Assembly: GCA_049644285.1 (NCBI GenBank) | Contig: JBARRP010000064.1 | Location: 2,469 to 34,468 of the forward strand | DNA length: 32,000 bases | Source: Candidatus Acidiferrales bacterium | GTDB lineage: Bacteria > Acidobacteriota > Terriglobia > Acidiferrales > UBA7541 | Reading direction: 5' to 3' | Part shown: piece by piece, positions 11,671-15,513 of the stretch | Layout: each line of letters begins with the position of its first letter | Position numbering within the stretch: the stretch's first letter is position 1 | The notes under the pieces: generated by a model | What the model was told of the DNA's origin: nothing | The model's database searches: none | The model's input: only the letters and a program-made list of their open reading frames with translations | Translations under genes and position numbers: made by a program

Positions 11671-12015
11671 GTGAGTCATCCTCCTGACGCAGGTTCGCGC
11701 TTCGGCGAGCGCCGCTCTGTTCCGCGCTTTGCATTCATCGCTTCTCTCGAAATAGATGAGCCCCTCTCGAACACCCGTATTTCCGGCCGTGTCATCGAAA
11801 TCAGTCAAAAAGGTTGCTGCGCCGAAGTCGCAAACCCGCTCCCGGTCAATTCCTTCATTCAGCTGCGAATCAAACGCGATGAGGCTGCGTTCGAGACTTG
11901 GGCTCGAGTGATTTATGATCGCCAGGGTGTCGGGATGGGATTCCTCTTCATTCGCACCGCCGCCGACCAATCGAAAGTGCTAGACACCTGGCTCGTCGAA
12001 CTCAAGGGAAGCTGA
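11671..12015 (+). CDS. Single-domain PilZ protein (c-di-GMP receptor-like)
   Basis: GTG 11671 is preceded by GAGGAAAAA. It carries the PilZ signature RRSVPR (RxxxR) followed by GRVIEISQKG (the D/NxSxxG-like block). The longer 11506 start adds only Arg/Ser-rich sequence. Confidence 0.7.
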   Translation: MSHPPDAGSRFGERRSVPRFAFIASLEIDEPLSNTRISGRVIEISQKGCCAEVANPLPVNSFIQLRIKRDEAAFETWARVIYDRQGVGMGFLFIRTAADQSKVLDTWLVELKGS

Positions 12016-12263
12016 TCTACAAGCATGCATCGCTCGCCGCATGGCGCCACTGCCGTTCGGCACACGCCTCTCGTAGCTGAGGGATACTATCAGAGTGGTA
12101 TGATCTGGTCGCGGCGCGCTATCAGGAGCGGATTAGAACGCATCATGAAAAACCTGGGCCACCCGCCTAACGAGGTGGGCTTATGTTCAACAGGTCGTGC
12201 CAAGCATGCTCCTGATGAGAGGTGCCGACATGGTCATAAACGCTTGCGAGGGAAGATAACTTC

Positions 12264-12588
12264 TTGGGGAAGAAAAAACGGCCTCCGGAATGCCCAAACT
12301 GCGGGCTGCCCTTAGAAGTTGAAATGCTAAAACCCGTGATTCAATGCCCGTTCTGCGGCGCTGAACTGGTTTACACTCCATTGCATCGAGTTCTGTTTCT
12401 CTAGGTCGGTATAGCTCTCGCCCTGGGGCGTTCCGGCGGCGATGGGAATCCGTCTCGCCATTTTTTCCTTGCCTTTCTTTCTTTGTTTCTATCCCGCGAT
12501 TGTATTGGCCGCTTGGCTGGTTCCGAAGGTTATACGTCCTACGTATAAACGCCGCGAACCGACAATAACAACCTTGTTCCGACACTGA
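12264..12588 (+). pseudogene. Possible disrupted small zinc-ribbon + 2-TM membrane protein (or two independent micro-ORFs)
   Basis: TTG 12264 (GAGGGAAG SD, 7-nt spacing) opens a 46-aa frame, MGKKKRPPECPNCGLPLEVEMLKPVIQCPFCGAELVYTPLHRVLFL, with two CxxC pairs. It stops at TAG 12402. Hydrophobic sequence continues as VGIALALG and then, after a 1-nt shift in the G4 run at 12425-12428, as VPAAMGIRLAIFSLPFFLCFYPAIVLAAWLVPKVIRPTYKRREP to TGA 12588. Confidence 0.3.
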
Positions 12589-12641
12589 ACGGGGTCGTCG
12601 CTCGGCGGGTTGACCGACCGGAGGAGACCCGCGTCGACTAC

Positions 12642-12854
12642 GGCGGGGTGGCCCAGGCTCGTTTCAATCCTTTCACTTGCGGCCGGGCACCCCAGGGTTC
12701 GCCCACTCTCTTTGGTCCTTGATCGCTTGACAGCGCAACCCGACCGGATGATTGCATTCGGACATTCATCCTCGGAGTCCATTTCCACCGAAGGGTGCTC
12801 CACTGTTCGATCTTGTTTTCCGAGGAGTGGGGGTTTTATTTCATCGGATCGATC
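12642..12854 (+). ncRNA. R1 repeat copy A: candidate structured small RNA ending in an intrinsic terminator
   Basis: About 90% identical to 13213-13424. Conserved hairpins are CCGGATG-ATTG-CATTCGG (12744-12761) and CCTCGG...CCGAAGG (12770-12794). The terminal hairpin CCACTGTTCG/CGAGGAGTGG (12800-12830) is followed by GGGTTTTATTTCAT. No coding signal was found. Confidence 0.35.
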
Positions 12855-13078
12855 CGCACCAGGCTGAGTCCGGATTGAGCCTAGAAAGAATAGCTGCTCC
12901 AGAGCCATTTCTTTGGATGATCGACGAGGCTTCACTTCACCGGGTTGAATTGCATGGAATGGAGTTCTCATTCCTTTTCTTCCGGCTCCAGATGTTGAAG
13001 TCGTTGAAGCGAGCCTGCCAGAAGCTTCGATACCGCGCCACGGGCGCGGGGGGCTGCCAGAAACACAGTTGCGAAACA

Positions 13079-13150
13079 GGCGGGCTGGCGCAGGCTCGTT
13101 TCAATCCTTTCAGTTGCGGCGAGCGGGCGGGTGGCGCACCCTTTTCGGTT
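13079..13150 (+). repeat. R1 repeat copy C: internally deleted copy retaining the 5' core and a short hairpin + T4
   Basis: GGCGGGCTGGCGCAGGCTCGTTTCAATCCTTTCAGTTGCGGC matches the 5' core of copies A and B. It is followed by GGGTG-GCG-CACCC TTTT (13129-13145). Its 3' flank (GATTAGATAA...GACTTGGTT) resembles the flank of copy B (GATCAGATAA...GACTTGGTT). Confidence 0.4.
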
Positions 13151-13212
13151 GATTAGATAACCGCCTTTGTTCCTTCCGATCAACTCGACTTGGTTACGTG
13201 TTGATGATCACG

Positions 13213-13424
13213 GGCGGGGCGGCCCAGGCTCGTTTCATCCTTTCACTTGCGCCCAGGCAGCCCAGGGTTCGACCACTCGTTTTCGACCTTGATCGCTTGA
13301 CGGCGCAACCCAACCGGATGATTGCATTCGGACATTCCTCCTCGGAGTTCATTTCCACCGAAGGGCGACCCACTCTTCGATCTTGTGTTCCGAAGAGTGG
13401 GGGGTTTATTTCATCGGATCGATC
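13213..13424 (+). ncRNA. R1 repeat copy B: candidate structured small RNA ending in an intrinsic terminator
   Basis: The best-preserved copy. It has an 11-bp perfect terminal stem CCCACTCTTCG/CGAAGAGTGGG (13369-13401) followed by GGGTTTATTTCAT, and the same internal hairpins as copy A (13314-13331 and downstream). GGGCGGG (13212-13218) is complementary to CCCGCCC (13427-13433) just past the element. Confidence 0.35.
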
Positions 13425-13671
13425 GGCCCGCCCTGATCAGATAATGGGGGGTCGCCTCCTTGCGACCGAGTAGACTTGGTTGACCGTAAGCGCCATGGAG
13501 ACACCCCAAGATCCACTCTCTGTTTCTTTCGTTTTCTTCGCTCCACCTCTCGCCTCCAACTCCCAATTCTCTACGACATACACCCCCTTGCAACTCCCCT
13601 GTCCCGTGTTACCGTGGCGTGCGGAGGTGCTGTGTCGTGGTGGCGGTTGCTCGCCGCGAACATGTCAACCC

Positions 13672-14433
13672 ATGACAGAAACCAACGAACATCGCGCAGC
13701 GCGTCTCGTCACAGGCTCTCCCTGTCGAACCAGTCCCAAAACGGGAAGAGACTCCTTCGCTTCACAAGCTCTAATCGCAACGAAGTTCAATTTTCTGGTG
13801 GCGGCCTCACCCCTTTATGCCGCAAGCGGCGCTAGGTTCCGTATTCCGAAGGCCAGCGCTGGCATCTCACTTCCTCCAGCCTCGCGCTTCGAGCATCCAG
13901 CTTCGAGAACTGTACTCGATACACCAAGCTACACCAAATGACAGTCGCAAAATCGCAACTCACTGAAAACAAGCACGATCGTATTTCGTGCCCGCTACAG
14001 GAACGCATGTTTCTGAAGAAGGAGCGCACGCTGAAGGCTGGACGCGCCCGCCTCCGCAGCAGTGCATTCTTGCCCGCATCTCTATTGCATCTCCAACTCC
14101 GGGCGGTAAGCCCTTTATGCTGAAGCGCTTCAATCTCGGCCATCTCTGCTCCCTCCGCGCTATCTGTGGTGAAGCGCGGCTCATTCTCTACCCGTTCTGC
14201 TCGCAACTCGAAATGACAGTCGCAAAACCGCAACTCGGACAAAACACGACTCAAATGCAATTTCTACCCGCAACAAAAACGCATGTTTCTGAACAAAGAG
14301 CGAAGGGCCTGTCCCGCGCACGGCGAGGGACGCGCCAGGCTCTTCGTCCTGAGGTCGCTGCGGTGACCGAAGGACCTCTCTGTTCCTTCAACTTTCGGCT
14401 TTCAACTGTGAACTGTCGACCTTCGTCTCGAAC
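13672..14433 (+). repeat. R2: three diverged tandem units of about 270 bp (starts 13672, 13938, 14213)
   Basis: Each unit begins with ATGACAG. Units 2 and 3 share AAATGACAGTCGCAAAAYCGCAACTC (13936-13961 / 14211-14236) and AACGCATGTTTCTGAA.AA.GAGCG (14002-14026 / 14278-14302). A 1-nt spacing difference between the blocks breaks any common reading frame. Unit 1 is much more diverged but shares CCCTTTATGC.G.AAGCG with unit 2. Confidence 0.6.
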
Positions 14434-15513
14434 ATGATCAACATTCACCAAGCCACCGAAAGCTTCGAGCGATGGAAGTCCTCACACATCCCCGTCGTAA
14501 AGAAGGACCTCGAGATCAAGCACTCCGCGATGGCGGCGGGCATCTTTCCTTTTTTCCGCGCTACGTTCTATCGCTGGCTTCAGCTTTGGGAAGACGTGTG
14601 CCCTGAGGAGGCTCGCGCTCCCAAAGTTCTCGCGGTCGGTGATCTGCACGTCGAAAACTTCGGCACCTGGAGGGATTTGGAAGGCCGCCTGATCTGGGGC
14701 GTCAACGATTTCGATGAAGCGTATCGCATGCCCTACACCATCGATCTTGTGCGCCTCGCGACCAGCGTGCGTCTCGCCATGGAAGAAGAGCATCTCTCGT
14801 TGAAATCTCGAAGCGGCTGCGACTCAATTCTGGAAGGGTATTGCGAAGCGCTCGAGACGGGCTGTCGGCCCTTCGTGCTCGGCGAAAACAACAAGTGGCT
14901 GCGTCGCATTGCTCTGAGCCGGCTGCGCGATCCGGTTCGCTTCTGGGGAAGAATGGAAGCCCTGCCGGCTTATACCGGCAAGATTCCCGATGACGTTCGC
15001 CGGCTCCTCGAAGACGATTTGCCCGAGCCGGAGCTTCCGTATATCCGCAAGCGGCGCGTTGCAGGACTCGGCAGCCTCGGCCATCTGCGCGTCGTGGCCT
15101 TAGCGAAATGGCGTGGAGCCTGGATTGCCCGTGAAATCAAAGCGCTCGCTCCTTCCGCCTGCGTCTGGGCCGGCGGCGATCGCAAGAACAGCAAAATCCA
15201 CTACCAGGAAATCATCGGCGCCGCCGCCCGCGTTCCCGATCCGTTCCTTCGCATCACGGAAGGCTATCTCCTTCGGCGACTCGCGCCAGACTGCTCGCGC
15301 ATTTTGCTCGCATCGCTTCCAGAAGACCGCGACGAAACGCGGCTGGTTCGAGCCATGGGCTTCGAGACCGCCAACATTCACTTCGGCAGCCCCAAATCGT
15401 TTCGCGCCGTAATTCGAGATCTGGAAAGGCGTCCCGATGGCTGGCTTCACCGGGCTGCCAAGAGGATGGCTAAAGCTACGCGTCGCGACTGGAAGCAGTG
15501 GTGCGATGGGTAG
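14434..15513 (+). CDS. DUF2252 family protein (kinase-like GDxHxxNFG motif)
   Basis: 359 aa with FFRATFYRW and VGDLHVENFGTWRDLEGRLIWGVNDFDEA, the hallmark DUF2252 block. Confidence 0.75.
   Translation: MINIHQATESFERWKSSHIPVVKKDLEIKHSAMAAGIFPFFRATFYRWLQLWEDVCPEEARAPKVLAVGDLHVENFGTWRDLEGRLIWGVNDFDEAYRMPYTIDLVRLATSVRLAMEEEHLSLKSRSGCDSILEGYCEALETGCRPFVLGENNKWLRRIALSRLRDPVRFWGRMEALPAYTGKIPDDVRRLLEDDLPEPELPYIRKRRVAGLGSLGHLRVVALAKWRGAWIAREIKALAPSACVWAGGDRKNSKIHYQEIIGAAARVPDPFLRITEGYLLRRLAPDCSRILLASLPEDRDETRLVRAMGFETANIHFGSPKSFRAVIRDLERRPDGWLHRAAKRMAKATRRDWKQWCDG

Follow-up and report, generated by a model that had tools for sequence, protein, structure and literature searches.

A noncoding unit of approx. 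215 nt, designated R1 here, occurs in two full copies (A and B) and one shortened copy (C) in the 32-kb window (i.e., the whole stretch of DNA analyzed, 32,000 nt from an uncultured soil member of the Acidobacteriota), and we tentatively read A and B as two paralogous small-RNA modules on the + strand that are restricted to one species. On the sequence evidence presented below, this is the most likely of the readings considered, with a probability that we would place somewhat short of even. In this reading, local copying of a noncoding element of approx. 215 nt within a gene-free stretch of 2.4 kb would have given rise to A and B, as small-RNA transcription units on the + strand, and to C, as an internally deleted relic. 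Each unit would start at the shared GGCGGG boundary and would be released at its own intrinsic terminator, while transcription might be supplied either by a weak promoter of its own (e.g., TTGACC-N18-TCGACT before A) or by read-through from the PilZ/zinc-ribbon genes upstream. If R1 does act as a small RNA, the C/U-rich loop UCAAUCCUUUCAC of the 5' hairpin, which is the most conserved exposed segment and is found in all three copies, could pair with purine-rich ribosome-binding regions.

Copies and setting of the repeated unit

Alignment of A and B over 216 nt showed 89.8% identity (BLAST E 1e-80), with 21 substitutions (12 transversions and 9 transitions, as read from the alignment) and one 1-nt indel, which agrees with the initial annotation of this DNA, where two full copies with approx. 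90% identity and one shortened copy had been described. All three copies begin at a common 5' boundary, GGCGGG, and the similarity between A and B stops abruptly at both ends of the unit; a shared start and sharp ends of this kind fit a discrete unit better than a segmental duplication with gradual edges. The cores of the copies are separated by 437 and 134 nt, and no further copies were found in the rest of the 32-kb window on either strand. The coordinates of the copies and of the associated features are given in Table 1.

Table 1. Positions, within the 32-kb window, of the R1 copies and of the hairpins, flanking patches and candidate promoter elements associated with them
Feature	Position	Strand	Description
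R1 copy A, full unit	12642-12857	+	approx. 216 nt; 89.8% identity to B; no Pfam match
R1 copy B, full unit	13213-13427	+	215 nt; 1-nt deletion in the loop of the 5' core
R1 copy C, 42-nt 5' core only	13079-13120	+	93% identity to A, 86% to B
3' hairpin of A	12798-12841	+	7+4 bp, one G.G mismatch, 11-nt loop; stem 12798-12832, then directly GUUUUAUUU
3' hairpin of B	13369-13412	+	11 perfect bp, 11-nt loop; stem 13369-13401, then GGGUUUAUUU
Hairpin after C	13129-13145	+	GGGTGGCGCACCC, then TTTT; terminator-like (terminator scan and fold)
Tail after C	13146-13195	+	TGATTAGATAA ... TCCTTCCGATCAACTCGACTTGGTT; homologous to 13433-13481
Tail after B	13433-13481	+	TGATCAGATAA ... hairpin GGTCGC-CTCCTT-GCGACC ... 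GACTTGGTT
Patch Y downstream of A	12964-12990	+	106 nt past the unit end; resembles 13522-13545
Patch Y downstream of B	13522-13545	+	94 nt past the unit end, a collinear distance
Inverted partial 5' core	13001-13021	-	approx. 15-20 nt, 93% complementary to 13090-13104
Candidate promoter before A	12610-12639	+	TTGACC (12610-12615), 18-nt spacer, weak TCGACT (12634-12639); sub-threshold
GATGAT before B	13203-13208	+	would place a start at B; read from the sequence, below a reasonable threshold

Copy C had been described as a remnant of the 5' core. Within the unit, only the core is indeed kept (a weak nhmmer extension reached 13148; E 2e-9), but the tail that follows C (given elsewhere as TGATTAGATAA...GACTTGGTT) also matches the tail that follows B (P = 0.001). 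C thus resembles a B-type unit from which the middle part was deleted. The 42-nt core contains the pattern TTTCA-N3/4-TTTCA, whose TTTCA repeats are not equally spaced in all copies (9 vs. 8 nt). The inverted core fragment upstream of C could form a long hairpin with C; the fold of 13000-13145 had a z of -1.5.

Further similarity between the surroundings of A and B was found in a pair of patches (patch Y) that aligned locally with P = 0.003, a value that calls for caution as the patches are pyrimidine-rich; the patch downstream of A overlaps a terminator-like site (12956-12984). Judged from the alignment, the two patches probably represent residual flank homology. Taken together, the collinear flank patches (i.e., the tail and patch Y) suggest that the duplicated segment was once longer than R1 and, if they are real homology, R1 kept 90% identity while its flanks decayed.

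The same A/C/B layout was observed in an NCBI MAG contig (GCA_049273715.1, Candidatus Acidiferrales bacterium), which is 99.83% identical to the window over 12.4 kb, as well as in two independent Logan assemblies (L049 and L050). The arrangement is therefore not an assembly artefact. Zero differences between the window and the MAG contig fell inside A, B or C, where approx. one would be expected, so that this comparison is uninformative on strain-level variation.

R1 lies within a gene-free stretch of 2.4 kb, which extends from approx. 12016 (certainly from 12405) to 14433. This stretch carries no called genes in the MAG contig and no tRNA or Rfam match, and the ORFs called for it in the Logan contigs have no recorded Pfam match. 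A Pfam search of all six frames of 12016-14433 gave only weak zinc-ribbon matches, for a small ORF outside R1; a pseudogene remnant, considered as another identity for R1, was rejected on this result. Upstream of R1 are a PilZ-domain gene and then the small zinc-ribbon ORF, which has an intrinsic terminator of its own (approx. 12440-12468), and downstream is a polyphosphate cluster comprising DUF2252, CHAD/Ppx, His-phosphatase, Ppx/GppA, two thymidylate-kinase-like genes and PPK2. All of the flanking genes are on the + strand, and R1 is co-oriented with them and with the terminator of the small upstream ORF.

Comparison with a relative (L011/L012; DUF2252 67% identical) showed that the block from DUF2252 to PPK2 is inverted there relative to its flanks, which carry FdhD/DUF6986 on one side and an aminotransferase/M28 peptidase on the other. 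At one junction of that inversion, i.e., exactly at a break in synteny with L011/L012, lies the gene-free stretch. Four closer relatives that were reached via PilZ (L047, L048, L051 and L052; 78-85% amino acid identity) each have other genes downstream of it, and R1 was not found in them. A contig with a DUF2252 gene of 83% amino acid identity (L058) holds the 3' part of the gene only and has no sequence upstream of it. Overall, the region represents a patchwork that includes the internally deleted copy C, the inverted core fragment, the Y and tail patches, and the pair of a second repeat (D).

Terminators, folds and relatives

A + strand hairpin with the shape of a terminator had been proposed at the end of each copy, and both the terminator scan and the folds confirmed it. 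The 3' piece of A (63 nt) folds at -20.5 kcal/mol (z -1.7). The 3' hairpin of B, with a 3-nt spacer between stem and U-tract, had a z of -3.1, with 1 of 200 shuffles being as stable. A GC-rich 3' hairpin followed by a U-tract, one of the criteria for small RNAs, was thus found for A, B and C, with loops that are long (11 nt) in A and B. The three substitutions between the stems of A and B (U.G to C-G, G.G to C-G, and U.G to U-A) are all compatible with pairing on the + strand; on the - strand, the same stem of copy A would have A.C, C.A and C.C mismatches. No U-tract follows the minus-strand hairpins in the folds of A and B. Because the combination of 3' hairpin and U-tract has terminator form on the + strand only, this strand would be the sense strand if R1 is transcribed. 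Within 2.7 kb, the terminator scan found seven sites on the + strand and one on the - strand (8 in total vs. 3.5 ± 2.0 expected for both strands), a count that is inflated because the + strand is T-rich.

The other hairpins named in the initial annotation, like the 3' stem with its U-tract, are present as described. The hairpin CCGGATG-ATTG-CATTCGG does not differ between A and B and is hence uninformative. In A, B and C, the conserved C/U-rich loop is closed by a 5' hairpin whose pairings differ among the copies and whose stability showed no excess over shuffles in B and C. On the other hand, the description of R1 as structured did not survive the folding tests. Whole-unit folds had z values of -1.1 (A) and -2.0 (B) on the + strand and of -1.95 (A) and -1.8 (B) on the - strand, so that the + strand folds no better than the - strand. 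RNAalifold of A and B found zero compensatory pairs on the + strand, and the structure-conservation index of the real A/B pair (0.70) was slightly below the null means (0.74-0.78), which came from 300 randomizations per direction and strand, with the substitution types retained and their positions drawn at random. Structural constraint on R1 was not detectable in these tests, which have low power with only two full copies.

A consensus scan of 11900-14600 found zero sigma-70-like sites, in keeping with the earlier observation that no convincing sigma70 promoter is present upstream of the copies; promoter rules in acidobacteria are poorly known. The 110-nt regions that precede the three copies have no motif in common. 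Among -35-like hexamers, only that of TTGACC-N18-TCGACT is positioned such that transcription would begin with the first bases of A. Anti-Shine-Dalgarno-like motifs, to which a role in repressing translation had been ascribed, occur at the frequency expected from composition, as TCC, TCCT and CTCC showed no enrichment over dinucleotide composition. GGA on the minus strand (i.e., TCC on the + strand) was counted 8 times in A (vs. 7.2 ± 1.8) and 5 times in B (vs. 6.5 ± 1.8); a CsrB/Rsm-type sponge on the minus strand was rejected on this composition-level count and on the lack of a U-tract after the minus-strand hairpins.

Searches against known RNA families gave zero matches to Rfam 15 at the gathering threshold for the whole window and nothing relevant at E <= 10 on both strands of 12400-14500, 12600-12880 and 13060-13500, where weak matches to an lncRNA model and to CRISPR-repeat models (E 4-9) were at chance level. 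Membership of an acidobacterial motif (Acido-1, Acido-Lenti-1 and others), which the initial annotation had singled out for checking, was not borne out, as no such motif matched even at E <= 10.

Searches for R1 itself found it in one species only. Among 185,579 GTDB species genomes, the 5'-core pattern had 9 matches, all of them chance 19-22-mers in unrelated taxa, and all 31 matches of the 18-mer CCGGATGATTGCATTCGG (the invariant hairpin) in JGI metagenome contigs were unrelated, with 11 of them representing one unrelated conserved locus. R1 was absent from viral contigs in three scans, and plasmids and phages gave no blastn match to 12400-14440. In an nhmmer search over 57 loci (418 kb), R1 was found in contigs of the same species only; the DUF2252 relatives (67% amino acid identity; L011-L015) were without it. 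As pattern scans need exact words, distant homologues were possibly missed. With no homologue found outside the species, there is consequently no covariation evidence for R1.

Alternative explanations

In favor of the small-RNA reading are the terminator stems that were kept in the full copies, the stability of the B hairpin (z -3.1), the use of intrinsic terminators by this organism (as after the zinc-ribbon ORF), and a stretch that is unchanged in three assemblies. Further points in its favor are the one 5' boundary common to all copies, the abrupt ends of the A/B similarity, pN/pS values near 0.9 together with empty Pfam searches, the presence in the same gene-free stretch of an element (D) that is conserved across species, and, if the flank patches are homologous, a divergence of R1 lower than that of its flanks. 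Against it are the orphan status of R1 outside the species, folds that are unremarkable and alike on both strands, A/B substitutions that spare the fold no better than random ones and include more transversions than transitions, a 5' hairpin that does not exceed shuffles in B and C, and C/U motifs that are not enriched. The copies also lack a common motif upstream as well as any sigma-70-like site that reaches the scan threshold, and they are located at an inversion junction with patchy duplications, where functionless duplicates could arise.

Such a functionless local duplication, drifting and perhaps derived from the 3' UTR and terminator of a lost gene, is a close rival, which we regard as possible but on the whole somewhat unlikely. 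Slippage or unequal recombination at a rearrangement-prone junction would have produced the copies, and the terminator hairpins would represent inherited baggage. An orphan without relatives in any collection searched, changes that look neutral (pN/pS of approx. 0.9, transversions at least as frequent as transitions, and a structure-conservation index not above the null), the absence of a promoter in the scans, and a neighborhood full of partial duplications would all be consistent with this origin, as would the exact coincidence with the synteny breakpoint relative to L011/L012 and the different neighbors of PilZ in every relative. The sharp boundaries, with one 5' end common to three copies, and the terminator stem that is pairing-competent in both full copies argue against it, as does the far smaller divergence of R1 than of its flanks if the flank patches are real homology. 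Moreover, useless DNA tends to be deleted from bacterial genomes, yet the 2.4 kb are unchanged in three assemblies.

It is more doubtful that R1 works in cis, as a module of the DNA or of the transcript, instead of as a trans-acting RNA. In one version of this explanation, the copies would be terminator or insulator repeats between the PilZ/zinc-ribbon transcript and the DUF2252-CHAD polyphosphate operon, for which the excess of terminator-like sites over expectation (7 of the 8 being on the + strand) and the + direction of every flanking gene could speak. In the other version, the 42-nt core with its TTTCA-N3/4-TTTCA pattern and its inverted fragment would represent a repeated protein-binding site; all three copies have only the 5' core in common, of which that fragment is a further, partial occurrence. 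Conversely, no regulator or motif family was identified for such a module, and the spacing of the TTTCA repeats is unequal between copies.

Three insertions of a miniature mobile element, either MITE-like or another non-autonomous repeat, would be very improbable. R1 does form a discrete unit with sharp ends, and the ends of copy B show a 14-nt complementarity (13206-13220 with 13424-13437) that is seen only in this copy (terminal inverted repeat test, P = 0.01); A, on the other hand, has no terminal inverted repeats (P = 0.67), and no target-site duplications were present in the flanking 12-mers. No transposase or integrase was found in the window, the other 31 kb of the window contain no further copies, and pattern scans and translated searches, including those of Logan samples containing the organism, found none either. 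A dispersed MITE, the outcome that would have overturned the initial annotation, is thus unlikely: no terminal inverted repeat in A, no target-site duplication, and no other copies in the window or in the collections searched were found, and R1 is not a MITE as far as is visible.

Two other classes of repeats were rejected. The segment GTTTCAATCC resembles the ends of some CRISPR repeat families, but the Rfam matches (E 4-9) and the lack of periodicity do not fit a degenerate CRISPR repeat, and the gaps between cores (437 and 134 nt vs. a periodicity of approx. 60-75 nt) do not fit an array; no cas-related Pfam match was found among the window ORFs scanned in a general, rather than cas-specific, Pfam scan. 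For an integron attC site, the core sites (RYYYAAC ... GTTRRRY) are absent in A and represented by one overlapping site in B, and the window contains no integrase.

Protein coding was rejected for R1, and a duplicated small-protein gene on either strand, be it the + frame or a minus-strand peptide M(D/N)SE(D/E)ECPNAIIR..., is scarcely credible. The initial annotation had reached the same view by an argument that is wrong in detail, i.e., that the only open frame is on the minus strand and is not open in B. One minus-strand frame is in fact stop-free through both A and B, and so is a + strand frame (ORFs 12610-12867 and 13198-13473). The noncoding nature of R1 nevertheless stands, because the Nei-Gojobori pN/pS of the open plus and minus frames was 0.86 and 0.88, respectively, i.e., close to 0.9; Pfam searches were empty, and there was no homologue signal. 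The indel shifts the + frame near its 5' end, no Shine-Dalgarno sequence was read at a usable spacing, and the gene caller was silent here in the NCBI MAG. In translated searches that spanned billions of proteins, the minus-strand 160-aa ORF found only its own locus in the Logan assemblies, and the matches of the + strand 91-aa ORF were limited to FG-GAP-like repeat proteins, with which it shares an 'LTAQP..TAF' motif by chance. A type I toxin-antitoxin system was rejected as no short hydrophobic ORF is present in any frame.

Comparison with known elements

The nearest analogues of R1 in behavior are tandem arrays of paralogous small RNAs, e.g., LhrC1-5 of Listeria, PrrF1/PrrF2 of Pseudomonas and the rsmX copies of Pseudomonas syringae, which have a recognizable conserved promoter per copy, are conserved across strains and species, and have been shown to be expressed. 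R1 resembles these arrays in the head-to-tail placement of noncoding units (100-200 nt in the arrays) in one intergenic region, in the Rho-independent terminator shape of each copy, and in its lineage-restricted sequence; as in LhrC, the C/U-rich single-stranded loops could pair with ribosome-binding sites. Unlike the arrays, R1 has no shared upstream motif, no homologue beyond one species and no enrichment of C/U motifs, and it is known from sequence alone.

R1 is also like the Acido-1 and Acido-Lenti-1 motifs, being a noncoding candidate in an intergenic region of the Acidobacteriota, and unlike the acidobacterial motifs of Rfam in that no Rfam 15 model was relevant at E <= 10. With BOX, ERIC, RUP, Correia and bcr1-type MITEs, which number tens to hundreds of scattered copies and as a rule are bounded by terminal inverted repeats or palindromic overall, R1 shares a short noncoding sequence, sharp ends, a modular makeup (the core alone in copy C) and hairpin potential. 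It differs from them by its three clustered copies, the lack of terminal inverted repeats in A and of target-site duplications, and the lack of copies detected elsewhere.

As few Acidobacteriota are in culture, hardly any regulatory RNAs are known from this phylum. If verified, a small-RNA pair would provide a rare view of small-RNA birth by local duplication in this phylum, as well as a handle on regulation near the polyphosphate/PilZ gene cluster. As an element of one species without sign of expression or selection, R1 is valuable as a candidate for a metatranscriptome check, i.e., as a reasonable but ordinary candidate outside every Rfam family. It further illustrates that terminator-shaped ends and repetition are insufficient for calling a structured RNA.

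A wider extension of the small-RNA reading, rather unlikely as a whole, would treat the 2.4-kb stretch as a small "noncoding RNA island" of an uncultured Acidiferrales (UBA7541) bacterium. Here, A and B might be the founders of a very young family of trans-acting small RNAs, which would pair with ribosome-binding sites via the C/U-rich loop and, beside the older element D, would together with it regulate the adjacent PilZ or polyphosphate genes. D, the second repeat in the gap, is 83% conserved in a different species, which argues that at least part of the gap represents functional noncoding sequence.

A second noncoding repeat family

The gene-free stretch that holds the R1 repeats also contains a second noncoding repeat family, designated D, with two copies that share 76% identity and lie 275 nt apart; the DUF2252 gene starts approx. 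130 nt downstream of the end of the second copy. The conserved blocks of D (ACAGTCGCAAAAyCrCAACT and TTTCTrCCCGCAACA...GCATkTTTCTGAA) are A/C-rich and have little pairing potential, and judging from these blocks, a folded RNA is thus less likely for D than a stretch of regulatory DNA or an RNA lacking structure. A homologue with 83% identity was found in another species (JGI contig Ga0683541_0000334, L047), where it has the opposite orientation and lies upstream of PilZ. While a 185-aa ORF encloses this homologue, the ORF looks spurious, as amino acid identity is 47% compared to 83% nucleotide identity. The minus strand of D carries the word CTGTCAT, which resembles half a Pho box; polyphosphate genes are adjacent.

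Features surrounding the R1 copies and of family D
Feature	Sequence	Coordinates	Strand	Remark
Uncalled small ORF	window	12264-12404	+	CxxC...CxxC zinc-ribbon peptide
Terminator after this ORF	window	~12440-12468	+	hairpin + T6
Hairpin 3' of R1 copy B	window	13450-13467	+	perfect; GGTCGC-CTCCTT-GCGACC
C/T tract after this hairpin	window	13480-13620	+	~140 nt, strongly pyrimidine-rich
D copy 1	window	13913-14026	+	
D copy 2	window	14197-14303	+	
D homologue	L047	9612-9717	-	nhmmer E 2e-19

Sequences flanking R1

The small ORF upstream of R1 encodes the peptide LGKKKRPPECPNCGLPLEVEMLKPVIQCPFCGAELVYTPLHRVLFL, which showed weak matches to Pfam zinc ribbons (LysW-like, E 0.019). In the same-species contig L010, a SNP at 12403 changes the stop codon from TAG to TCG and extends the frame. 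ORF support was absent for the C/T tract downstream of copy B. An independent same-species contig (L050, Logan SRR28062278) corresponds to window 11977-13149 and ends a few bases past the TTTT behind the copy C hairpin; if SRR28062278 were a metatranscriptome, this end could represent a transcript 3' end.

Ten or eleven metagenome contigs containing the 18-mer CCGGATGATTGCATTCGG from the invariant R1 hairpin (JGI/other: L017, L019, L025, L026, L029, L030, L033, L036, L042, L045) have in common a conserved sequence of approx. 100 nt around this word (…GCGGATGAGCTGACGAATCACCAGCAA[18-mer]TCGCAACTCATTCTAACGAGAAAGC…), which is unrelated to R1.

Inversion of the polyphosphate block

Compared to the related Acidiferrales MAG GCA_049695335.1 (window 6562-31929 against L011/L012), the polyphosphate block is in inverted orientation with respect to the sequences on either side. 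The block consists of DUF2252, CHAD/Ppx, His-phosphatase, Ppx/GppA, two thymidylate-kinase-like genes and PPK2. Additional material is present at both junctions, comprising SnoaL, PilZ and the gene-free stretch at one and PIN, multicopper oxidase, phosphoesterase and molybdopterin oxidoreductase at the other.
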